DNA from: a virus
Lineage: Duplodnaviria > Heunggongvirae > Uroviricota > Caudoviricetes
Direction: 5' to 3' (one strand)
DNA length: 10,113 nt
Virus record (IMG/VR): IMGVR_UViG_2574179916_000007
Below the pieces are notes generated by a model. That model had not been told where the DNA came from. It was given only the letters and a program-made list of their open reading frames with translations, and made no database searches. How positions within the stretch are numbered: position 1 is the stretch's first letter; the number at the start of each line of letters is the position of its first letter. Below, piece after piece: positions 1-10,113 of this stretch. A program made the translations under genes and the position numbers.

Positions 1-171
1 GCCCAGTTTCCGGTAAAAAGACCGACCAGAACTTGTGCGACAACAGCGCAAAGTGCGTGAAGAATTGGTGTTATATCAACATCTATATTCATCATAAATA
101 ACTCATTCCATTTTCACAAATAAGCCGCCAACAAGAAGACGGCATTAACATTAAAATAATTATATATGATG

Positions 172-2301
172 CTATTCCTCAATACCTAACCTGCTTGAAA
201 CCTCAGGCATAACAGTAACCTGAAGGGTTTTTGATGAATCTGTGTTTTTAATTGCTATGCTGATATTGTCAGAAGTGCTGTTATTGTTTGACACTGTTAT
301 AGAGTTTGCATCCACCCCGAGTTTCGAATAAGCATCAGCAAAACTAAGACCAACACTTCCACCAACAACTCTATATGAACCATCAATTCTGAATGACGAT
401 ATATTGTTATTGCTAACATCTCTAATTAGAACCCATATAGAAACACCCCTGAAAACAAGGCTTGCCCCTGATGGTATTTGAAGTGATACAATTCCTGTGG
501 AACCGGGGGGGATACTGCCAGTATATTTAGTTCCGTGCAGATATTTCCCCGGTAGGTCTAAATACGATGTGTCTGGATGTAATAAATTATGTATATGTCT
601 GCTATCTATGCTTCCAGACAGAACCATAGAATCATTGCCATATTCAATTATCCTTCCACCATCGTTACTTATTGTAAGTAATCCTTTGTTTCCTTTATTA
701 TTTCTAACAGTTATATCAGAAGAATCCAGGCGGACAATTGATATATTTTTTTCTGATCCATGACAATAATTTGATGAAATTTCACCTGTAACAAGTGACG
801 TACATAAAATGTCTGAACTTCCATCACTGTCGCCAGTAATAGTGTTGCAGGAAATTAATGCACCATATACCAGACCTGTTGGAGATTCTCCAAATTGCTC
901 TATAGTAATCCGTTTTGTGGTATTTGCTGATATGGTTATATTATGAACATCGTCAGTTTGCGATGTTACTTTGATCCTTGATGAAACTGTATTTCCAGAA
1001 ATAGTAACATTACTTGTATCATCCACCCATAAATATGACGAAAACGTATTACCTGATATGACTGAGTTACTCACCATTGAGTTCTCAAGCTCACATGAAC
1101 CATAGCTATTGTTATGGTCATAATTTCCTATAATCCTTACAAATCCATTCTGGTTAATGAAGTTGTATGATGTTGCATTTTGTCCGCCATAAGTTGAGTT
1201 ATGTGATGTTTCAGCATTTGTAACGCCTATATGTTGAAAATGACCGGCATTTACAGAATCAGGAGCAACTGATGTACACCCTATTACTTTTGTGTTTTTG
1301 ACAATTCTTGAATTAGGGTCATTCTCCAAATAATAGTTTTTTGCAACAAATGCCGTAGAGTAAAAGAAACCTTCAAATCTATTAAATAAAATCTGAATAT
1401 CGTCATAATCTCTTTGGTCTTCATTTGCATAGCAATAAAATGCTCTTGAAGACTCGGAGTAATCCTTGCATTTCTGAACGCCAGATAAAAGTGATCGGAT
1501 TCTGCTAGATTTTATTCTAAATCCGTTGTGAATTAACGTTGCATCACCAACTAATGTTATTGGCTTAAACAATTCAACCTTATCAAAAACAAATTCACCA
1601 CCATAAAATCCAAGTATAGCCCCTTCTGGTACTGCATTAATAGCATTTTGAATTGCTACAGTATCATCTGTTATGCCGTCTCCTTTTGCACCAAAATCAC
1701 GAACACTAATGGTGTCTCTCATCTTATCCTGGAACGTTCGGTACACAGCCCCAGAACCATACTGAATAAACCAACCAAAACCACCAACAACCCCGGCGAT
1801 TGCAGCATCGACATAATTACGCATTGAGCGATTATTTACAGCATCCTGCTCAAGTGATGGATCTGCAAGGTTAGAAATTCTGTTTTGCTTTGCATCGTAA
1901 TATTTTGCAAGCAGAGAGGGCTTCATCAATGCACGTCTGAACCACCCAAAACATTGCTGGATCAGCATCGTCAGGTAGTCAAAGGCATCTTCATGCACTT
2001 CGGGGAAAAATTTTCCCTGATTGCGAAGGTCTGTCTCCTGCACTACATCAAGCACACGATCTATCGTAATTCGCCATCCAGTAGCAAGCGGAGACGGAAG
2101 AACCACAGAACCGCCACTATAAGTGCCCGCCCCAGTTACCGTATAACCGGTATCCAGGACCAATTCTGTTACGTTTCCGTTCAGATCAGACACCTGAACA
2201 ACCAGGTCTGATTTTCTGAAAATTCGAAAAGTATACGGAAACGATGTCGTAACGCCGTTACCGGTGTATTCGTTGTGGTCAACTTCGGTTGAGACCGTCA
2301 T
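172..2301 (-). CDS. Phage tailspike / tail fibre protein with T7 gp17-like N-terminal adaptor and pectate-lyase-like beta-helix (putative polysaccharide depolymerase)
   Basis: 709-aa ORF with ATG at 2301 and GGAG about 8 nt upstream on the minus strand. The N-terminal ~150 aa (YTGNGVTTSFPYTF...VVQVSD...) resemble the T7-type tail-fibre N-terminal domain. The motif DFGAKGDGITDDTVAIQNAI is typical of pectate-lyase-3 / right-handed beta-helix proteins. The C-terminal part is Ser/Asn/Thr-rich and the gene is visibly AT-rich. Confidence 0.85.
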   Translation of the reverse strand: MTVSTEVDHNEYTGNGVTTSFPYTFRIFRKSDLVVQVSDLNGNVTELVLDTGYTVTGAGTYSGGSVVLPSPLATGWRITIDRVLDVVQETDLRNQGKFFPEVHEDAFDYLTMLIQQCFGWFRRALMKPSLLAKYYDAKQNRISNLADPSLEQDAVNNRSMRNYVDAAIAGVVGGFGWFIQYGSGAVYRTFQDKMRDTISVRDFGAKGDGITDDTVAIQNAINAVPEGAILGFYGGEFVFDKVELFKPITLVGDATLIHNGFRIKSSRIRSLLSGVQKCKDYSESSRAFYCYANEDQRDYDDIQILFNRFEGFFYSTAFVAKNYYLENDPNSRIVKNTKVIGCTSVAPDSVNAGHFQHIGVTNAETSHNSTYGGQNATSYNFINQNGFVRIIGNYDHNNSYGSCELENSMVSNSVISGNTFSSYLWVDDTSNVTISGNTVSSRIKVTSQTDDVHNITISANTTKRITIEQFGESPTGLVYGALISCNTITGDSDGSSDILCTSLVTGEISSNYCHGSEKNISIVRLDSSDITVRNNKGNKGLLTISNDGGRIIEYGNDSMVLSGSIDSRHIHNLLHPDTSYLDLPGKYLHGTKYTGSIPPGSTGIVSLQIPSGASLVFRGVSIWVLIRDVSNNNISSFRIDGSYRVVGGSVGLSFADAYSKLGVDANSITVSNNNSTSDNISIAIKNTDSSKTLQVTVMPEVSSRLGIEE

Positions 2302-2404
2302 GTTAAATCTCCAGATAGTCGCAGCACCCGTTGCGCCGCATATCTGGTTATTCTATTACCTGAAAAACCATATATGGATAAAAAGACTATAAATACCAAT
2401 AGAT

Positions 2405-2421
2405 ATTACCTTTCGGGTAAT
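2405..2421. promoter_or_regulatory. Operator-like inverted repeat ATTACC-TTTCG-GGTAAT (copy 1 of 3)
   Basis: Perfect 6-bp arms with a 5-nt spacer, 76 nt upstream of the ATG at 2497. The same TTACC-N5-GGTAA core recurs at 3854..3870 and 4914..4930. Confidence 0.5.
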
Positions 2422-2457
2422 TTGCAAAACGTGCTGGATAGCAAACAAATTATTTGT

Positions 2458-2477
2458 TACTGTATAAACATACAGTT
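2458..2477. promoter_or_regulatory. LexA (SOS) box
   Basis: TACTGTATAAACATACAGTT has perfect CTGT-N8-ACAG half-sites and 17 of 20 matches to the consensus TACTGTATATATATACAGTA. It lies 20 nt upstream of the ATG at 2497 in an AT-rich promoter-like stretch. Confidence 0.7.
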
Positions 2478-2496
2478 ATTGCATGGAGAAGATAAG

Positions 2497-2754
2497 ATGC
2501 AGCAGTATCACTATCCACTGGAAGACGGATTTACCGAAAGGATTCACACGCCGGGAGGCGTCAGGTCACTGGTGGAGGGATCGCACTTGATGAAATTACT
2601 CCGGGATCTCGATAAGGATGGATTTAATGTCGATGGCCCACTTGCCGAACTGACTGCACTGATTAACTACGTCACCAGCTCACAGATGTCTATGCAGGAT
2701 CTGCAAACACATCTCGACTATTGTGCCGAACAATTACGAAAACAAACCACATAA
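2497..2754 (+). CDS. Small (85 aa) antirepressor-like protein, a stand-alone homologue of the Ant C-terminal domain; probably SOS-inducible
   Basis: ATG at 2497 is preceded by GGAG 8 nt upstream. The product (LMKLLRDLDKDGFNVDGPLAELTALINYV...MQDLQTHLDY) aligns with the C-terminus of the 4138..4829 product (LMNLLNQLQEDGHDVSGAAAELTTMFCYI...LRDIQTHAEY). The longer ORF-track start at 2374 would place the LexA box and operator repeat inside coding sequence. Confidence 0.6.
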   Translation: MQQYHYPLEDGFTERIHTPGGVRSLVEGSHLMKLLRDLDKDGFNVDGPLAELTALINYVTSSQMSMQDLQTHLDYCAEQLRKQTT

Positions 2755-2776
2755 AGAAAAGGCCGCGAAAGCGGCC
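2753..2776 (-). terminator. Rho-independent terminator for the minus-strand two-gene operon
   Basis: Perfect hairpin GGCCGC-GAAA-GCGGCC at 2761..2776, followed on the minus strand by a U-rich run (complement of AAAGAAAA at 2753..2760). It sits directly after the stop of the 2778..3284 gene and also just after the stop of the plus-strand small gene. Confidence 0.6.
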
Positions 2777-2777
2777 A

Positions 2778-3284
2778 TTAACAGTCGTAAAATTCTGGGT
2801 CCCACAAACTAGCATCGCGCGGCATGGATTCTAACTTTTTCAGCCGCAAAATTCTGTCACACTCGACAACTAATTTTTGCTTCTGCTCGTCAATTTCTAC
2901 TGTCTTATGTGCTGGTTCATCCCAATAATCCAGAAGGAAGGCATGGCGTTCAGATGTGACCAGATAAATCACATACACGTCACTGGTTGGGATCTTTTTA
3001 TGCTTGTTAGTGGTCTTGTCTTTCTTCCCAGACGCCCAGTTTTTCCAGCATTGTTCCGTACCGCTCTCACCAAACTTGTCAGTATAGTTTCCGATGTTTA
3101 CGTGAACGTGGCGTATGTGATATTCCAGCATTTCTTTCGGTGGATCCCGAAACAGAGTGTCCTTTCCGAAATCCTTATGATGACCGTAGCGCCAGTGATC
3201 TATGAACGCGTTTTTGATAGGTATTAGCTCAGGGTCCTTCCCAAAAATTCCAGGGTGAACCAACCCCTGGAATTTATTCAGCAT
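2778..3284 (-). CDS. Putative toxin of a two-gene module (168 aa); tentatively YafO-like mRNA interferase
   Basis: Start taken at the internal ATG (3284..3282), which overlaps the stop of the upstream gene in the arrangement GATGCTGAATAA (translational coupling). The ORF-track N-terminal extension would overlap the upstream gene by about 100 nt. His-rich motifs DFGKDTLFRDPP...LEYHIRHVHVNIGN and VIYLVTSERHAFLLDYWDEPAH resemble, from memory only, the YafO family (FGRD...HIHL...PEPH). Confidence 0.65.
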   Translation of the reverse strand: MLNKFQGLVHPGIFGKDPELIPIKNAFIDHWRYGHHKDFGKDTLFRDPPKEMLEYHIRHVHVNIGNYTDKFGESGTEQCWKNWASGKKDKTTNKHKKIPTSDVYVIYLVTSERHAFLLDYWDEPAHKTVEIDEQKQKLVVECDRILRLKKLESMPRDASLWDPEFYDC

Positions 3285-3693
3285 CGTCGTAGAGCTCCTG
3301 AGCCATATCTTCGGCAGTGCGTGCAAACATCCTGCGCGAGATTGCATGAGATTTCTCGACGGACATCTTTGGGACCTCATGCATAACATTTTTGGGAGTT
3401 GTGTAATAGCCTATTACAATTTTCACACCTGACTTATGATTAATATCAGCATAATATACTTCTTGTTCAGACGTTTCACGACGAACATAATCTGCCAGTT
3501 TTCCACATTTAAATTCCCCTCCCTGATGTTTTAAAATCTCCTCAACTGCACTATTTTCAGTGAAATACCGAATAAGAAATTTCTGTCCAGACTCTTCAGC
3601 ATGAGGTATAACAGTATTATTGGAAGCCCGAACAATGGCCTTACTCAATATTTCATGGTCTTTATTTTTTTCTGATTTCCTCAAATGCTGCAT
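3274..3693 (-). CDS. Putative antitoxin / partner protein (139 aa from first ATG) of the two-gene module
   Basis: ORF ending 8 nt inside the start of the downstream gene. The first ATG (3693..3691) has AAGAGAG about 8 nt upstream; alternative GTG (3723) or TTG (3729) starts would give up to 151 aa. The C-terminus is acidic (EDMAQELYDDAE), as in many antitoxins. No recognisable DNA-binding motif and no family identified. Confidence 0.6.
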   Translation of the reverse strand: MQHLRKSEKNKDHEILSKAIVRASNNTVIPHAEESGQKFLIRYFTENSAVEEILKHQGGEFKCGKLADYVRRETSEQEVYYADINHKSGVKIVIGYYTTPKNVMHEVPKMSVEKSHAISRRMFARTAEDMAQELYDDAE

Positions 3694-3825
3694 TACTGTA
3701 GCTCTCTTCGTGTTCACGGGCACCCCCAACTACCTCTAGGGTAAACATTCTATCGAAAGTATACGCATACTGGCAAAAAAATAGGCAGGTATTTTCTGAA
3801 ATGGGATAAATCAAACCATATAGGG

Positions 3826-3855
3826 TTGAAATAACGTGAGTTATGCATTTATTAT
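3826..3855 (+). promoter_or_regulatory. Candidate sigma70 promoter reading toward ant
   Basis: TTGAAA (3826..3831), 18-nt spacer, TATTAT (3850..3855). The operator repeat copy 2 begins at the 3' edge of the -10 element. Confidence 0.35.
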
Positions 3856-3870
3856 TACCTTTTCGGTAAA
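3854..3870. promoter_or_regulatory. Operator-like inverted repeat ATTACC-TTTTC-GGTAAA (copy 2 of 3)
   Basis: TTACC-N5-GGTAA with perfect 5-bp arms, overlapping the predicted -10 and transcription start of the ant-proximal promoter. Confidence 0.5.
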
Positions 3871-3962
3871 TTTACATTGCACTCCTCTTGTGCCATAGTA
3901 ATCGGGCACTGGCAAAATCCAGTGCCGGGATTGGTCTCCCGGATTACTACAGAGGCACATAT

Positions 3963-3982
3963 GCCGCATAAGCGGTTTTTTT
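3963..3982 (+). terminator. Terminator-like short hairpin plus U7 within the ant upstream region (possible attenuator or sRNA 3' end)
   Basis: GCCGC-ATAA-GCGG(T) stem-loop followed by TTTTTTT on the plus strand. The stem is short (4-5 bp), so this is weak on its own. Upstream hairpins lie at 3905..3926 and 3925..3942. Confidence 0.35.
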
Positions 3983-4137
3983 ATGTGTAAAGCGCACCTA
4001 TTCTATGGTGGGCTGTGTGGGGGCACCGAAAGGTGCGCCGGGTTCCTTTGTAGCCGGTAAGACCAACTCTGCACAGTTCACCACCATCTGATTGGTCTCA
4101 GCGGTGGTGATTAACCTAACTACAAAGGTGATCGCTA

Positions 4138-4829
4138 TGAATACCAAACCTTCCATCTTTTCCTTTGAGTCATCCTGCCAGATCCGTATGTTCATGATTG
4201 ACGGAGAACCTTGGTTTGTCACCAAAGATGTGTGCAATGCTTTGAATATTGATGTTACACAAGCGAGAAAACTTGATAAAAAAGGCTGGAACAAAAAGGG
4301 GCTGTATTCAATACAGACCCCTGGTGGAATACAAGAACTATCCATCGTTTCAGAATCAGGTCTCTACATCCTTATTCTGCGTTGCAAAGAGGCAATGACT
4401 GAGGGAACGAGAGCATTCAGATTTCTTGAATGGGTTACAGGTGAGGTTCTTCCTCAGATCCGCCGCACCGGAAGTTACATTAAAAACTCGCTCCCGCAGG
4501 AAGAACGCATAAAGATGGTTGCCGACCAGGTAGCCAACGCCACAGCATCAGCAGTGATGCAGGCAATGAAGGTAGAGAACAAAACCTACAGCGCCCCACT
4601 GAAGCCCGGCTACCGCAGCCTGATTCATTCGCCGTCTGGTGTTCTCGGCCTGACGGAGAACTCACTGCTGATGAATCTGCTAAACCAGTTACAGGAAGAC
4701 GGGCACGACGTATCGGGCGCGGCGGCGGAGTTGACCACCATGTTCTGCTACATCGTCGGTGTGAGCAAATGCCTGCGTGATATCCAGACGCACGCGGAGT
4801 ACATCAACGACAAAGCAGGGTTCTTCTGA
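4138..4829 (+). CDS. ant: Phage antirepressor (Bro-N N-terminal domain plus Ant/KilA-C-type C-terminal domain)
   Basis: ATG at 4138 with AAAGGTG 7 nt upstream; the ORF-track start at 4092 is a non-ATG alternative. The N-terminus (FESSCQIRMFMIDGEPWFVTKDVCNALNI...SESGLYILILRCKEAMTEGTRAFRFLEWVTGEVLPQIRRTGSY) matches the Bro-N pattern. The C-terminus is homologous to the 2497..2754 product. Confidence 0.85.
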
Positions 4830-4871
4830 CGGGCGGCGGCACAGGGATGTGCCTACAATTATCAATAATTG

Positions 4872-4900
4872 TTTACACTCGTTGCAGTTAAAAGCATTAT
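4872..4900 (+). promoter_or_regulatory. Candidate sigma70 promoter for the 4951..5752 genes
   Basis: TTTACA (4872..4877), 17-nt spacer, CATTAT (4895..4900), in the AT-rich intergenic region after ant. Confidence 0.3.
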
Positions 4901-4913
4901 ACTCATGTTTAAA

Positions 4914-4930
4914 ATTACCCGATTGGTAAA
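4914..4930. promoter_or_regulatory. Operator-like inverted repeat ATTACC-CGATT-GGTAAA (copy 3 of 3)
   Basis: TTACC-N5-GGTAA with perfect arms, between the candidate promoter and the GAGG ribosome-binding site of the 4951 gene. Confidence 0.5.
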
Positions 4931-4950
4931 GTCGATTGGTTGAGGTTCAT

Positions 4951-5277
4951 ATGAGCAGAAGATATGTCAAGGAGCTGGCTATAGAGTCTGGCACCCCTTT
5001 GGGTATCGTTCCTGGCTCCAACTATGCCAAGGCTTTAAACCGAGACTCTGTCGTCAAAGTTATATCAAGAGACATGAATATGGTCGGAGACGATCTCAGA
5101 CGGTCAGAAAATCGTGTTTATGCTGAATATATAGTAAAGAACGGAAAAAAAATTGCAGCGCCTGCTGGCGGAAAATGGGCAATAGTGACAGGGAAAAACT
5201 CAAATGCAAGAGGAAAACCAGAAGCTAAAGGAATGTCCTTCGACAAATATGCAAAAATCTATTGGGCAACCAAGTGA
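4951..5277 (+). CDS. Hypothetical basic protein (108 aa); possible regulator
   Basis: ATG at 4951 with GAGG 5-6 nt upstream; the ORF-track start at 4936 is TTG. Lys/Arg-rich product with no recognised motif. Operator copy 3 sits in its leader. Confidence 0.55.
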   Translation: MSRRYVKELAIESGTPLGIVPGSNYAKALNRDSVVKVISRDMNMVGDDLRRSENRVYAEYIVKNGKKIAAPAGGKWAIVTGKNSNARGKPEAKGMSFDKYAKIYWATK

Positions 5278-5752
5278 TAACGAAGAAACTGAGTTCGAGG
5301 AAGTTGAGGAAGGGCTAAGTAACGAGATCATTCAACACCCAGATGCCTTCACAAGAGTTCTTGATCGCCCTGAAATTCAGGAGATAGTTGTCGCTCACCA
5401 TGCGTTTCAGGGTCCGCTTCCTCCCCCCTATCTGCTTCGCGGGTATCAGGATATTTTACCTGATGCCCCCGAACGCATCTTCCAGCTGACGGAGAAGGAG
5501 TTTGCTCACCGCCAGAAAATGGAGGAAAAGGCACTTGACGGGGCTATTAATAGAGATAAACGTGGGCAGTGGTTTGGCCTGAGTGCAACTATTTTTACAG
5601 TAGCTTGTGCAACATTATTAGGTTTAACAGGTCATGAAGTTCTAGCTGGCACAGTGATCGGTACAGTTGTTGCAGTGGCTGGTATTTTCGTTCTTAGACA
5701 AAAACCAAGCATCAAGAAGAAATCTGAAGACAACAAACCTGAAGAAAAGTAA
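5204..5752 (+). CDS. Hypothetical membrane protein (182 aa): acidic N-terminal region and two predicted C-terminal transmembrane helices
   Basis: ORF overlapping the upstream gene in another frame. Start is ambiguous: ATG 5204 (GGGA about 9 nt upstream) or ATG 5249. Hydrophobic stretches WFGLSATIFTVACATLLGL and LAGTVIGTVVAVAGIFVL are followed by a Lys-rich tail. A conserved-looking QGPLPPPYLLRGY motif is present. A strong terminator follows. Confidence 0.55.
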   Translation: MQEENQKLKECPSTNMQKSIGQPSDNEETEFEEVEEGLSNEIIQHPDAFTRVLDRPEIQEIVVAHHAFQGPLPPPYLLRGYQDILPDAPERIFQLTEKEFAHRQKMEEKALDGAINRDKRGQWFGLSATIFTVACATLLGLTGHEVLAGTVIGTVVAVAGIFVLRQKPSIKKKSEDNKPEEK

Positions 5753-5773
5753 GCCCGCGCTGCGGGCTTTTTT
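5753..5773 (+). terminator. Rho-independent terminator
   Basis: GCCCGC-GCT-GCGGGC hairpin followed by TTTTTT, immediately after the stop codon at 5750..5752. Confidence 0.75.
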
Positions 5774-5845
5774 GTGGACGAAACAAAAGTCAGTGCTACA
5801 CTCATTGACGCCACATTGAGGTGGCTTATAGATGGAAATTTCACA

Positions 5846-6007
5846 ATGAAAAAAGCATTTGCTGCACTGTTCGTTTTGTTGTCTCTGGTAGCTTCAACTC
5901 AGGCCTTTGCCGGTCGTTGTCAGCACGACAGCGATACTGCCGCTGACGGCTCCCGCTGCGGTGGGCGTTCTGCGGATTCCCGCCCTGGCGGCGGTGGCAT
6001 TCGTTAA
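5846..6007 (+). CDS. Small secreted peptide (53 aa precursor with Sec-type signal peptide)
   Basis: ATG at 5846 with GGAAA about 7 nt upstream. The N-terminus MKKAFAALFVLLSLVASTQAFA is a classic signal peptide with an AxA cleavage site. The mature part is Gly/Ser/Asp-rich with two Cys. A possible promoter is TTGACG (5805..5810) with TATAGA (5827..5832). The ORF-track GTG start at 5774 overlaps the upstream terminator. Confidence 0.45.
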   Translation: MKKAFAALFVLLSLVASTQAFAGRCQHDSDTAADGSRCGGRSADSRPGGGGIR

Positions 6008-6035
6008 AAACAAGGCCGCGAAAGCGGCCTGTTTG
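6006..6035. terminator. Bidirectional rho-independent terminator between convergent genes
   Basis: Hairpin GGCCGC-GAAA-GCGGCC at 6014..6029 is flanked by AAAAACAA on one side and TGTTTG on the other, so either strand reads hairpin plus U-rich tract. The hairpin is identical to the one at 2761..2776. Confidence 0.7.
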
Positions 6036-6036
6036 A

Positions 6037-6888
6037 TCACTGTGCAGTTTTCGCTGATCGATTTTCAGCTCTAAATTCAAGAACCGTTTCAATATTTCTT
6101 TCCTTCAGCATATCAATAACATTTTTATTCATTTGACTATCACTGGTTAATAACTGGTAAACGTTGCTTCTCTCTTTATCAGAGTTTTCTTTAACAGCTG
6201 CTTTGCATGCCAAATGCTTATTGAAATTTTCTACATCGCTAGTACAGGAATTTACGGCTGCTGATGAAATATCAGACGCTGAAGAAACACCGTCATCCAA
6301 ACGTTTTATAGCATTTTCTATACATGAGTTAAGGGAATAAACGACAACTGAGCGATACCCTTCAGACGCACACCATTCTAAATTTCTTGAAGGATCGAGT
6401 GGTTTTACTTCGCTGGATTGAATTAACTTGTCAAAAACTGACTTATATTCAATCTGTTTTTTATCTATAGCCCATACTTCAGTAGCTGATTTATAATTCC
6501 CCGTATGCCTATTAACATCAAATCCATGTTTTATAAGCAAATCTGCCCATGAAAGATTTATTGATTCATTGTTATGAGGCCATTTTCCTGTCAGAACCGC
6601 CCCCATAGACCCCATATATCCGCCATATGATGGTATAGCACCATGGCTCAGTAACTTCTCTGCAACCACAGGGCAATTAATTACATAAGAGGCGTAAAGC
6701 CCATTCCATAAAGCCCCTCTATAGTAATCGCCACGATTAGGTTCTTTTAAGTCGATAGCCTTTGATAATTGTTCGCACGTTTTGCATGCATCAAAGTTAT
6801 CCTTATTGCATTGCAATGAACTGGCAGCTGTAGGATTTACAGAGACTATTGAAAGCACTATGCCAAAAAACAAATTTATTTTTTTCAT
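6037..6888 (-). CDS. Secreted or periplasmic protein of unknown function (283 aa), AT-rich moron at the end of the structural operon
   Basis: ATG at 6888 lies 1 nt after the TAG stop of the upstream 1065-aa gene (TAGGATG), implying coupling. The N-terminus MKKINLFFGIVLSIVSVNPTAA is a signal peptide and is not a lipobox. The mature protein has multiple Cys. The gene is visibly lower in GC than the upstream gene. Segments VAEKLLSHGA and ADLLIKHGFDVN weakly resemble ankyrin-repeat helices. Confidence 0.75.
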   Translation of the reverse strand: MKKINLFFGIVLSIVSVNPTAASSLQCNKDNFDACKTCEQLSKAIDLKEPNRGDYYRGALWNGLYASYVINCPVVAEKLLSHGAIPSYGGYMGSMGAVLTGKWPHNNESINLSWADLLIKHGFDVNRHTGNYKSATEVWAIDKKQIEYKSVFDKLIQSSEVKPLDPSRNLEWCASEGYRSVVVYSLNSCIENAIKRLDDGVSSASDISSAAVNSCTSDVENFNKHLACKAAVKENSDKERSNVYQLLTSDSQMNKNVIDMLKERNIETVLEFRAENRSAKTAQ

Positions 6889-6889
6889 C

Positions 6890-9800
6890 CTATTTCATCT
6901 GCTCTTCAACTTTATTTAGTAATGGTGATATCGCCCACAGATTCTGAAAAGGTAGCATTTTACGGACAGCGTGGGTTTGCTGGCTGTCAAATTCTCCGTT
7001 AAGTACACCATTTGCAACCGTCGCGGCATCACCGCCAAGATCAAAGGTAGGACCAAGTAAAGCACCAATAGCATTACGACTCTGAAACCTTGATACCGGA
7101 GGCGCACCAAACATCGCGCCAAGACCAAACCTACCGCCGCTTATGTTCTCAACGGTATTCAGCGGCTCAGAGAGCCAGCCAAGCATTCCGCCCCGGTCGA
7201 TCCCCTCTTTCACAAGGTTATTCCAGCTGTAGTCGATATCGCGACCGCTTAACTTCTGTTTCATCATATAGACCATTGAGCCAAGCGCAATCGTGCCAAG
7301 CGCACCAAGATAGAATGCAGCATCGCCCTGCTGGATACCAGATACTAGCACCCTGTTATGCTGTGCGAAGATAAACGTTTTGAACTGCGTGATCATCTTC
7401 CAGCCTTCTTTACTAAAAAACAGCGGTGTATCACCTACGCCAGGCGTTACAATCACTGAGTCTACATCTTTCAGCACTGCAGACTGGAAAATCTCTCTAG
7501 CGAAACGGTCATCCCACAGATGACTATGCCCGGTTAACAGCCCGTCCATATCCTCTCCGTGCTTCCCGAATTGCTCCCCGATTCGGCGCAGAACATCTTC
7601 ATTGATGCCGACCTGTGCCATCTTCCGCATTTCACTTTTGGAGAGCGTGCCACCAGCAGAAACTTGGCGAGCCGCGTCAAGTATCCTCGACTGCACTATC
7701 ATCCCAGACCATGATTTAAGTGCGCTGTTCCACTGATTCATCAGCGTCCAGTTACCGAATTTCTGCGTCATCCAGTTCAGACCTCGCTCAGCGGCGCTTC
7801 TCCGGCTATAGGGGTCAGTAAGATCCGCTATAGCCTTTGTGCGCGTAGACAGGACATAATCAAGCCCAACTGCCATTTCTCGCAAATCCCTGGTTGCAAT
7901 TTTCACTGAGTCCATATTTTTAAGCATGCTTACCATTGGTCCGAGAGATTTTCTCAGGCCATGCTGCATCATCGGTCGCATCAGATCAGTTGCAGCGGAG
8001 ACGGTCATTCCACCAAGCAAACGGAGGAAGTTAATATTCCTAGCAACTCGCCCGGCACGAACAAAGAAACTGCGTGGATCTTGAGGTGCGCCGTAAGTAC
8101 CAAGCAGTCGGTCACGCATAGCCGTAATATCCCTAATATCAGCCTCCCGTTGCTTCTCAAGAGCTGCACGTCGTTTAGGTGTTTTAGCCTCTTTTATTAG
8201 CCGGGTATATTCCTCACTAACCTGACGGATTTGCTCCCCCATATCTTTACGGCCAAACTGCGCAGTCAGCTCAATTTCTGGTGCCACCTGCCGGAGATAA
8301 CTTTCCATGATGTAGTTAACATCTGATTCAAGAAAATCTTCTATACGCTCATCAGGAATAAGCAGCGTTCGGCTTTTAGTGAAACCAGCCCGACCAACGA
8401 GTCTCTCTGGGATAATATCGGCTGGTACAAGCCCGGAAGGTGCGCCTATTATTTTATTCACGATCTCGTCAGCAGCGTCCTCTGCTTCCTCTCGGGATAG
8501 AGGCTCCATCTGCTTCAGTGCTCGCTCGCGGCTTGCATTCAGCCTTGTGGTTGAATTTGCCCGTTTTTGCAGTCGGCGAAGCTCAGAACGATATTTCCGT
8601 GGATTATCCAGCAACTCCATATGGCGCTGATAGACAGGAAGCTCACTCTTTGCCTGCGCTATATCATCAAGGCGTGTTTTAAGGTCAGAGCTTTCTTTCA
8701 TCATTCTTGCCTGAAGTTTTTCTGATGAAGTCTCGGCCAACTCTTTTTCTATTCTTGTAAGACGCGCCTGTGTGTCAGTCTCCTGAGATATAAGCTTATT
8801 TCGTTTATCCAGTTCTTCCATGAGTAGAATTTTTTTACCAGACCATTTCTCCGCTTCAGCGATTTCACTAGCGAGAGCATCAGCGCGCGGTGCTGATTCC
8901 TCTGCAGTTTTTAGCAATGAATTTATCTTTTCAATTCGCTGACCTGCTTTGTCAGCACCTTTGGCACTAATCCCTTGTATCCAGTTGGCAATTCGCCCTC
9001 TGAATTCAGTGCGGTCGGAAAGTATCTTATCGAACTTATAAATGCGGGGAAGATAACTCTTCGCCGTCACGACATCGATATCCTCAGGAAGGATCCCCAA
9101 TTCCTGCATACGGGCTTTTGTGGTCTCAAAAATGGGGCGGATTCTGGCGGCTGCTTGTGAAACCTCAGGAATATCACTCTGATCACCACGGCGCATAGCC
9201 ATGCCAACAGCTTCATTGAAATCAATAAAGTTCATCCTCTTCACGCCGCGGGCGCTGACAGATTTGCTGTACTGCTGGTAAGCATCACGAGTAGCTTCCA
9301 TCTGCTTATAAAGCATGGCGTCGTATTGCTTAATCTTAGTCTCGACTGCCGTAAACGTAGCCAACCCCTCATCATTTTTGGCGAAGAAATAGTTATTTTC
9401 GGCAAGCTGCTGGTTAATCTGACGGGAAACAAGAGATGGTGATTGCGCCAAGCGGCCAGCAGGAGTGACACTCAACGTTTTGTTAGCAAGTCCAAGTCCA
9501 GCAAGCTGTTCCTGATCGAGTGTGGTATTGAAAACCTGAGCTGCACCAATGCTTTGAGGAGAATCCATACCTCGCAAATGATTACCTACTGAGTTAACCA
9601 CTGCCTCGCGCGCGCTAGGTCCAGCAAGTAGCTGTGCACCAGCACCAAGGATCCCACCAACGAGAGCATCAACAACAACGTTCGATACGCTCTCCATCGG
9701 TGAGCGAGCTTCCTGAGTGGCCTGCAATGCGGCCTCTGAAGCAACACTGCCAGCAGCATTGGCTAAAGCAAAACGTCCGGCTGTTTCTGCAATACGACCG

Positions 9801-10087
9801 CCACGAACGACAGCGCCGAACGGAATAAACATAGAAATCGCATTGAATGGATCTGCTAATCTCATTGCTACAGAAGAGACTGTACCAGCAAATCCCAAGC
9901 CTGAATTGTATTCCATGTCAGCTCTCTGCTGATCGATTCGATGTTTAATTGCCATTGTTTCTTCATGCGAACCGGAGTTGATAAACGAATCTGCAAAATC
10001 TTCATAGCCTTTAATATCTGCTGCATCGTTATCAAATGGGTTATATCCTTCAACCCTGTTAGACTGGCCCCCTGAATCTCCAGACAA
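6890..10087 (-). CDS. Large virion-associated protein (1065 aa); candidate internal/ejection protein or tape-measure-like protein
   Basis: Uninterrupted 3.2-kb ORF. It is predominantly alpha-helical with charged coiled-coil-like central segments (for example [34 protein letters not shown]) and Gly/Ala-rich hydrophobic segments near both ends. It occupies the last position of a structural operon before the immunity module and tailspike. The start is probably TTG at 10087, 6 nt after an in-frame TGA; the next ATG is at 9955. No catalytic motif was recognised. Confidence 0.8.
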
Positions 10088-10113
10088 CCAATATCACTTA
10101 AATAAGTGATAGT

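Follow-up and report, generated by a model that had tools for sequence, protein, structure and literature searches.

Antirepressors, regulatory RNAs, and cargo in a variable region of an epsilon15-like Escherichia coli prophage, between its tailspike and its last virion genes

How does a temperate phage control its antirepressors when they lie where phage P22 carries immI (mnt-arc-ant, with the sar RNA), but without the P22 regulators? The question is raised by virus record IMGVR_UViG_2574179916_000007 (Caudoviricetes), from which one stretch of 10,113 nucleotides (nt), here called the window, was analyzed. Within it, positions 2302 to 6036 separate the tailspike gene from the end of the structural operon, beginning one base past the tailspike start codon and ending one base ahead of a gene for a protein of 283 amino acids (aa). 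An earlier note, made from the letters alone, had described this interval as an immI-like island of compositionally mosaic modules. The region proves to be a variable hot spot for anti-immunity and cargo genes in an epsilon15-like (Uetakevirus) temperate podophage that is integrated as a prophage in Escherichia coli. The best explanation of its content, which we hold to be probable, is a circuit assembled from cassettes, comprising units headed by operators of the main repressor Rep, a small antirepressor (Ant) under LexA, a toxin-antitoxin-like pair, a second and larger antirepressor (gene ant2) behind an IsrK-C4 RNA pair, and cargo genes. The sequences show the homologies and motifs, the folding and covariation of the RNAs, and the exchange of cassettes, and from these we infer binding, timing, and cargo function.

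Positions 1 to 10066 of the window are 100% identical to Escherichia phage EC.W1-9, an isolated, plaque-forming phage, and the island itself (2302-6036) is 100% identical in 29 complete E. coli genomes, with parts of it in 569 of 5426 genomes. Its relatives in the genus Uetakevirus are phiV10, TL-2011b, phiv142-3, ZX5, epsilon15, and SPC32H. In RefSeq the prophage adjoins yfgI; the reported integration site of ZX5 is the 3' end of guaA (PMC9782041).

The small ant gene and its control sites are the only elements present in all seven of the complete Uetakevirus-type phage loci compared. Small Ant matches the crystallized Ant of SPC32H (PDB 5D50 chain E) over residues 2-85 (expect value [E] 1.3e-47; ~87% identity over 84 aa), with further homologues in epsilon15 gp19 and phiV10 gp24. 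A LexA-box 19-mer, TACTGTATAAACATACAGT (2458-2476), lies 21 nt 5' of its open reading frame (ORF), where shuffled sequences give an expectation of 0. Its 16-mer core recurs unchanged, and equally far from ant, in SPC32H and epsilon15, and variants of the box occupy the same place in phiV10, TL-2011b, and phiv142-3. The LexA-controlled mini-antirepressor proposed in the earlier note is thereby borne out. Rep of EC.W1-9 matches SPC32H Rep (PDB 5D50 chain A) over residues 1-190 (E 4e-42) and, by this homology, has the helix-turn-helix N-terminal domain and Ant-binding C-terminal domain of a cognate repressor.

In SPC32H, ant is reportedly under LexA control, and cleavage of LexA is said to free Ant, which takes Rep tetramers apart and removes Rep from its operators, Rep itself reportedly not undergoing RecA-dependent cleavage. 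The likeness to this Rep-Ant system (PDB 5D50 and 5D4Z) covers the orthologous small Ant, the identical LexA 16-mer and spacing, the placement of ant, which diverges from the tailspike, a Rep homologue encoded by the phage itself, and a shared Rep operator motif. It has limits, since the Rep similarity is moderate and since ant stands alone between tailspike and structural operon in SPC32H and epsilon15, whereas in the window the two copies of the shared terminator enclose an additional 3.2 kb of cassettes. A Rep/Ant mechanism has been published (PMC9638917 and PMC9986798).

The predicted Rep operators are palindromes. TTACC-N5-GGTAA occurs in three exact copies in the window (at 2406, 3855, and 4915) against 0.03 expected, and none of 200 shuffles reached three; in its full form, ATTACC-N5-GGTAAT, the motif heads each plus-strand unit. 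The 40.6-kb phage has 11 copies, all of them intergenic when their coordinates are set against the gene table, including one in the rep-cro spacer and one in the region 5' of the small terminase gene. In the curated epsilon15 record this motif is marked as a repressor-binding site, and the record's "protein_bind repressor" feature at 19895-19911, between gp19 (the Ant homologue) and the tail fiber gene, is the homologue of the first operator, O1. The operator repeat set described in the earlier note is real, but it is not a local, Mnt-like one. Because the motif is annotated in epsilon15 and found phage-wide, and because EC.W1-9 Rep is homologous to SPC32H Rep, the repeats are better read as dispersed operators of the main repressor, which in P1, too, are scattered over the phage. 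O1, O2, and O3 are thus predicted sites at which Rep would bind. A minus-strand promoter-like site (3776-3747) lies near the one-mismatch operator-like site at the start of the toxin operon. As a separate observation, a box of the form AAACCAnATA(K)GG is found at 2365-2383, 2744-2753, and 3813-3831, next to the operators and, by comparison with phiv142-3, at either edge of the inserted toxin pair; six phages have it unchanged in the spacer between tailspike and ant, and the epsilon15 record has an integration host factor site annotated next to the homologous operator.

Ahead of the second antirepressor gene lies an RNA layer that the earlier note had not seen. The transcription start predicted near 3906 is the first base of the Rfam isrK match. 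IsrK contains the segments a1 (3931-3937) and b1 (3947-3955) and an intrinsic terminator (3963-3982), and a sub-threshold Rfam c4-a1b1 match (39.9 bits) overlaps it. The C4 RNA that follows has a consensus fold with compensatory changes in 8 of 27 pairs and carries b' (4045-4053) and a' (4060-4066). Its hairpin loop b', CCUUUGUAG, is complementary both to b2, CUACAAAGG (4120-4128), and to b1, CUACAGAGG, while its bulge a', AGACCAA, is complementary to UUGGUCU at a2 (4092-4098) and at a1. Duplex energies over the four sites (starting at 3931, 3947, 4092, and 4120) range from -9.5 to -15.7 kcal/mol, with -9.5 and -12.6 kcal/mol at the C4 targets a2 and b2. Across five phages the partners covary, giving two a specificities (TTGGTCT/AGACCAA and TTGGCGT/ACGCCAA) and three b specificities (CTACAAAGG/CCTTTGTAG, CTAAAAGG/CCTTTTAG, and CTAAGTGG/CCACTTAG). 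The isrK-C4 pair also stands 5' of the Bro-N ant in phiV10, TL-2011b, phiv142-3, ZX5, and a Klebsiella phage, and 5' of anrP in Gifsy-1. An Rfam match to RT-7 (18.5 bits vs 116.8) was put down to chance.

Judged by these sequence features, control of large ant is RNA-based and P1/Gifsy-1-like rather than P22-like. In the immI operon of P1 and P7 (c4-icd-ant), the antirepressor is controlled through the C4 RNA. The window shares with that operon a C4 with a'/b' complementary to upstream a1/b1 and to a2/b2 at the ribosome-binding site, covarying and sequence-specific "immunity" variants, and a main-repressor operator at the operon promoter. It differs from it in having no icd, in a terminator between b1 and C4 that yields a separate IsrK RNA, and in an antirepressor that is a Bro-N fusion. 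For P1, pairing of a'/b' with a1/b1 and with a2/b2 has been described (PMC12197685 and PMC7313666), and an IsrK mechanism has been described at the isrK-orf45-anrP locus of Gifsy-1 (Hershko-Shalev et al. 2016, PMC4825925). Gifsy-1 resembles the window in having IsrK with its own terminator, then a C4-type RNA, and then an antirepressor gene, and the order of Rfam matches (isrK, c4-a1b1, C4) is identical. The two loci differ in that (i) orf45 ends on the anrP start codon (AUGA), coupling translation, whereas in the window b2 lies on the Shine-Dalgarno sequence of ant itself; (ii) the Gifsy-1 locus is in a lambdoid Q region, and that of the window in a podophage tail region; and (iii) a Rep operator at the promoter is found for the window only. 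No coupling ORF of the icd/orf45 type was found in the ant leader of the window, where the sole ORF (28 aa, 4005-4091) lies inside C4 and stops 45 nt ahead of the ant ATG.

Two observations reach beyond the window. At the IsrK type locus in Gifsy-1 (34131-34329, minus strand), the Rfam isrK match lies over a c4-a1b1 match that is above threshold (48.1 bits), and an Rfam C4 RNA falls exactly at the described "orf45", 5' of anrP. Gifsy-1 IsrK appears to be the a1b1 leader, with a terminator, of a c4-ant operon of the P1 type; IsrK and c4 are still treated as separate systems in a review from 2025. The second observation concerns coding sequences annotated as "Ash family protein", which overlie the C4 RNA gene in ZX5 (4232-4345) and in a Klebsiella prophage locus (3203-3373), while the 28-aa ORF of the window has a sub-threshold Pfam Phage_ASH match. 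Such calls are probably translations of the C4 RNA gene and not real proteins, although orf45 of Gifsy-1 has been reported as translated (PMC4825925).

What the RNA pair controls is a two-domain protein. The head of large Ant is a Pfam Bro-N domain (E 1.9e-13), and residues 147-228 match phrog_450 (E 3e-37) and 5D50_E (E 9e-14) and are 42% identical to small Ant, so that, by sequence, the C-terminal domain of large Ant is a paralogue of small Ant. G+C content at third codon positions (GC3) jumps from 0.47 to 0.76 at the junction between the Bro-N head and the C-domain. The same C-domain, 84 to 86% identical over ~100 residues and with the last ~80 identical, is joined to an ORF6N head in another prophage of E. 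coli and, in TL-2011b, to a P22_AR_N head. A word-indexed search with this domain gave short proteins only. An exhaustive search of 1.84 billion representatives, in which fusions did emerge, gave only 44 clusters, mostly stand-alone proteins and in a few cases C-terminal fusions to Rha, AntA, or Bro-N heads.

Is large Ant aimed at the Rep of its own phage? The alternative is that it acts in crosstalk with the repressors of other prophages, or is a DNA-binding regulator unrelated to Rep. The low identity between its C-domain and small Ant would fit this, as would the passage of an identical C-domain among Bro-N, ORF6N, and P22_AR_N heads. For Gifsy and Fels prophages, crosstalk through antirepressors that act in trans has been documented (PMC3121763), and there is no obvious need for a second antirepressor against the same Rep where a LexA-controlled Ant is already present. 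An experiment on ZX5 points the other way. Large Ant is 80% identical overall to ORF4 of ZX5 and essentially identical to it from residue 104 onward; when ORF4 was overexpressed, the lysogen titer fell about a thousand-fold, the balance in ZX5 itself moved toward lysis, and the ZX5 repressor was transcribed less; this repressor is stated to be the same in sequence as the phiV10 and phiv142-3 repressors (PMC9782041). The ZX5 locus is like that of the window in that ORF4 neighbors small Ant, IsrK, C4, orf108, and DUF2335, and unlike it in lacking the toxin pair; PMC9782041 mentions neither the RNAs, small Ant, nor the LexA box. As the isrK-C4-ant unit also bears the phage's own Rep operator, we consider a target other than Rep unlikely, though of the alternatives it is the likeliest. 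Both antirepressors of the island are, in any case, real homologues of known antirepressors.

Table 1. Coordinates of features in the 10,113-nt window (a point marks features given without a strand)
Feature	Position	Strand	Remarks
Tailspike (flank)	172..2301	-	Many PHROG tail families; Pfam Pect-lyase_RHGA_epim
Predicted Rep operator O1, TTACCTTTCGGGTAA	2406..2420	.	Exact palindrome between tailspike and small ant; conserved in alignment
LexA box	2458..2477	.	Core CTGTATAAACATACAG at 2460-2475
Small antirepressor Ant, 85 aa, SPC32H type	2497..2754	+	PDB 5D50_E, phrog_450
Bidirectional terminator hairpin	2757..2776	.	Left copy of 25-nt repeat (2752-2776)
RelE/HigB-fold toxin-like protein, 168 aa	2778..3284	-	PGAP name: YafO family
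Upstream partner, 147 aa, putative antitoxin	3274..3717	-	11-nt overlap with toxin gene
One-mismatch operator-like site, CTACCTCTAGGGTAA	3730..3744	.	At start of toxin operon
Predicted Rep operator O2	3855..3869	.	Abuts -35 of isrK promoter; conserved in five relatives
Promoter-like site TTTACA-17-CATAGT	3871..3899	+	Predicted transcription start near 3906
IsrK RNA	3906..3982	+	Rfam RF01394, 74.7 bits (gathering 50)
C4 antisense RNA	4001..4088	+	Rfam RF01695, 78.6 bits (gathering 45)
C4 target sites a2 (4092-4098) and b2 (4120-4128)	4092..4128	+	b2 covers ant Shine-Dalgarno sequence
Large antirepressor, 230 aa	4137..4829	+	Bro-N head (aa 16-106) and SPC32H-Ant-like C-domain (aa ~147-228)
Predicted Rep operator O3	4915..4929	.	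Just 3' of promoter-like sites, 22 nt ahead of orf108
orf108	4951..5277	+	phrog_10654; always paired with DUF2335 in relatives
DUF2335 membrane protein	5204..5752	+	Pfam DUF2335 E 1.6e-15; phrog_3996; start ambiguous (5204 or 5248)
Bidirectional terminator and module boundary	5751..5769	.	Hairpin and blastn boundary
53-aa protein	5846..6007	+	phrog_14503; N-terminus signal-peptide-like by eye
Terminator hairpin	6013..6030	.	Right copy of 25-nt repeat (6005-6029)
283-aa variable gene	6037..6888	-	phrog_6118 only; end of structural operon, outside interval
DUF919 internal virion protein (flank)	6890..10087	-	phrog_342, E 9e-222; truncated by insertion sequence end at ~10067

The remaining genes of the island are cargo, and among them the toxin-like operon and the membrane protein (DUF2335) named in the earlier note are both present. 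The 168-aa protein has a RelE-like fold, and together with its upstream partner it is kept in Klebsiella prophages at ~45% identity. In alignment, the C-terminal 38 aa of the partner are invariant and its N-terminus is variable; its AlphaFold2 model is mostly disordered (predicted local distance difference test score 50). Membership in YafO/YafN was dropped after Pfam, NCBIfam, BLASTP against K-12 YafO and YafN, and hhalign had given weak links at best. The YafO models found no Pfam match at E<=5 and no NCBIfam match at E<=0.01 in the 168-aa protein, BLASTP against K-12 YafO gave E 0.002 over 54 aa, and the hhalign probability was 7%, while one 66%-identical homologue has a precomputed PF13957 match. 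Because these links are so slight, the toxin is filed under the RelE/HigB fold rather than under YafO; a PDB sequence search with the toxin profile gave no match. From sequence, the pair is best described as RelE/HigB-fold type II toxin-antitoxin-like, with putative toxin activity. Apart from this, a near-invariant partner tail (…MREVPKMSVEKSxAISRRMFARTAEDMAQELYDDAE) is borne by at least two unrelated N-terminal halves and stays fixed while the toxins diverge to ~43% identity, which is the reverse of the usual co-divergence of toxin-binding tails. In Klebsiella Uetakevirus-like prophages, the pair stands in the opposite arrangement relative to the Bro-N ant.

Beyond the large antirepressor lie orf108, for which a PDB sequence search gave no match, the DUF2335 gene, and the gene for the 53-aa protein, which is kept in TL-2011b, phiv142-3, and the Klebsiella phage. 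The 283-aa gene, just outside the interval, follows the DUF919 gene after a one-base gap. Its product has a signal-peptide-like N-terminus by eye and no Pfam, NCBIfam, PADLOC, or PDB match; the gene is absent from six relatives, and unrelated genes of 98 to 204 aa are found in this slot in relatives. It belongs to the variable region and is a likely moron.

With cargo of this kind, the island might be chiefly a defense or exclusion locus, the toxin pair causing abortive infection, the DUF2335, 53-aa, and 283-aa proteins serving as exclusion factors, and the antirepressors being incidental. Toxin-antitoxin modules do recur in the slot, where some Klebsiella prophages add HicA toxin and DUF1902 genes to the YafO-like pair; the cargo is membrane-bound or secreted and takes the position of P22 sieA; and PHROGs tag DUF2335 and the 53-aa protein as moron-type. 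Against this, the PADLOC defense models had 0 matches among eight proteins, and only small ant and its control sites are common to all the complete loci compared. Moreover, a Rep operator precedes orf108-DUF2335 and speaks against its expression in the lysogen; we infer that orf108, DUF2335, and the 53-aa peptide belong to the early genes repressed by Rep and are not morons expressed in the lysogen. A primarily defensive island thus seems improbable to us, and is given slightly less credence than a different target for large Ant.

That the island was assembled from independently acquired modules is upheld by comparison with relatives, which differ by whole cassettes. Boundaries were set by blastn against the six relatives, and they coincide with terminators and operators. 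The first module (1955-2776), with the tailspike head-binding domain, the control region, small ant, and a terminator, is common to all relatives. The second (2777-3848, the toxin pair) is missing from the six relatives compared and present in other E. coli prophages and in Klebsiella relatives. There follow modules at 3849-4877 (isrK-C4-ant), 4878-5750 (orf108-DUF2335), 5752-6032 (the 53-aa gene), and 6037-6888 (variable). In other E. coli prophages the contents of the slot vary: the toxin pair may be present or missing, the head may be Bro-N or ORF6N, and the tailspikes and terminal genes differ. A 25-nt repeat (2752-2776 and 6005-6029, 92% identical), consisting of a stop codon and the hairpin GGCCGCGAAAGCGGCC, brackets the expanded 3.2-kb part. 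Since ant and the structural operon share just one such hairpin in epsilon15 and SPC32H, where the window has two, the comparison suggests that the 3.2-kb part arose by insertion into, or duplication of, the terminator.

Base composition says less. The visible contrast claimed earlier holds for a few outliers; inside the interval, where GC per unit runs from 0.39 to 0.57, it is modest, and it is strongest just outside. The Ant C-domain (GC 0.563, GC3 0.76) is at the 97th percentile of same-size phage windows, the 53-aa gene has a GC of 0.574, and the 147-aa partner gene has one of 0.394 (7th percentile). The sharpest contrasts are those of the tailspike receptor-binding part (172-1650; GC 0.357, 1st percentile; GC3 0.25) and the 283-aa gene (GC 0.370, 3rd percentile for the phage). 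As most units of the interval lie within the phage's normal GC range, it is the comparison of sequences, not GC, that carries the argument for mosaicism. The N-terminal head-binding part of the tailspike (about 1955-2301, GC 0.459) is kept throughout the genus by its blastn boundaries; in a separate observation, the same N-terminus bears endosialidase, GDSL-lipase, and other heads in relatives.

How far, then, does the likeness to P22 go? In P22, immI has gene 16 and sieA on one side and gene 9 on the other. There, as in the window, the antirepressor region is flanked by the tailspike and by the last of the ejection or internal virion genes, with cargo beside the antirepressor, and to that extent the P22-like arrangement proposed in the earlier note holds; in the control of large ant and in orientation, it does not. 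One could still suppose a P22-type immI whose Mnt and Arc ribbon-helix-helix repressors and sar are merely diverged or unannotated. TL-2011b carries in the same slot (7109-8293) an Arc-like repressor, a sar RNA (44.8 bits), and a P22_AR_N antirepressor with a C-terminal ~100 aa that matches the Ant C-domain of the window; with this genuine P22-type arc-sar-ant module, it has three antirepressor modules side by side. The Ant of the window itself has a sub-threshold P22_AR_N match (17.7 bits vs a cut-off of 30.7). A search of 51 six-frame ORFs of 25 to 120 aa against Pfam at E<=0.1, however, found no ribbon-helix-helix family, in keeping with the earlier impression that Mnt and Arc are not recognizable, and no sar match occurred in the window at E<=1 by the method that detected sar in TL-2011b. 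The ant leader is filled instead by IsrK and C4 with their covarying targets, control lies with Rep, LexA, and C4, and the ant genes run divergently from the tailspike and not toward it. The P22-type reading is thus largely refuted already, and we give it very little chance.

A non-phage element or decayed remnant with an accidental arrangement, for which one might cite the insertion sequence (IS) end inside the DUF919 gene in the source of the window, is scarcely credible and already refuted for the island itself, since positions 1-10066 are those of EC.W1-9, the flanking genes, all on the minus strand, are virion genes of that bona fide phage, the arrangement is kept in many prophages, and the control sites are conserved across genera. 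The last ~47 bases of the window (10067-10113) are the end of a multicopy, IS2-like IS with thousands of E. coli matches, and the junction at ~10067, which interrupts an internal-virion gene that encodes 1129 aa when intact, is shown by none of the complete genomes of the collection.

We return to the reading of the island as a circuit of exchangeable cassettes. In the first (O1, LexA box, small Ant), SOS cleavage of LexA would, by analogy with SPC32H, lead to synthesis of Ant, which would bind the C-terminal domain of Rep and take Rep tetramers off their operators. The second, on the opposite strand, would be a type II toxin-antitoxin system of toxin and upstream partner, with a possible role in addiction or abortive defense. 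The third consists of O2, the promoter, IsrK (a1, b1, terminator), C4, a2/b2, and the Bro-N antirepressor; on the model of P1 immI, the C4 loops a'/b' would pair with a2/b2 and block ant translation, and on that of Gifsy-1, terminated IsrK transcripts carrying a1 and b1 would relieve the block, presumably by competing with a2/b2 for C4. The fourth comprises O3, orf108, the DUF2335 membrane protein, and the 53-aa peptide, which may be secreted. Because Rep operators head both units, isrK-C4-ant2 and orf108-DUF2335 would be expected to fire after Rep is weakened or on infection; isrK-C4-ant2 in particular would fire only once Rep had first been weakened, or on entry into a cell, and could function as an amplifier or in anti-immunity.

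Several points weigh against this circuit. The Rep gene lies outside the window. O1 may serve the tailspike promoter instead of ant. With only 42% identity between the two Ant domains, large Ant may target a different repressor, and the mechanisms of P1 and Gifsy-1 may not transfer exactly to a leader that has no icd/orf45-type coupling ORF. The YafO assignment is weak (by hhalign, and with no hidden Markov model match), the partner has no confident fold, and no cargo gene has a PADLOC match. Finally, the IS cuts a virion gene in the source of the window, so this prophage copy may be defective.

A more specific version of the circuit is a two-stage latch, in which LexA-freed small Ant would loosen Rep and so open isrK-C4-ant2, after which IsrK, acting as a decoy, would titrate C4 and unlock the second Rep-binding antirepressor. 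We put this forward tentatively, as an idea that may well prove wrong. If it were true, the IsrK "activator" of Gifsy-1 and the c4 "repressor" of P1 would be two halves of one conserved RNA switch, which in the literature that could be searched are still handled as unrelated.

Every component of the island is of a known kind, and public phage and genome records already contain its DNA; as leads, the composite circuit and the unification of IsrK with C4 are modestly interesting. The locus does not overturn current understanding and is a tidy example rather than a surprise. It shows induction circuitry of a temperate podophage built from exchangeable operator-gene-terminator cassettes, in which one Rep-binding antirepressor domain would be used twice, alone under LexA and fused under antisense-RNA control, the fused form carrying interchangeable Bro-N, ORF6N, P22_AR_N, Rha, or AntA heads. 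It also flags the "hypothetical" 85-aa genes of these common E. coli prophages for annotation as their real SOS switch, and it is a practical setting in which to ask why two antirepressors are kept by one prophage and whether IsrK sequesters C4.

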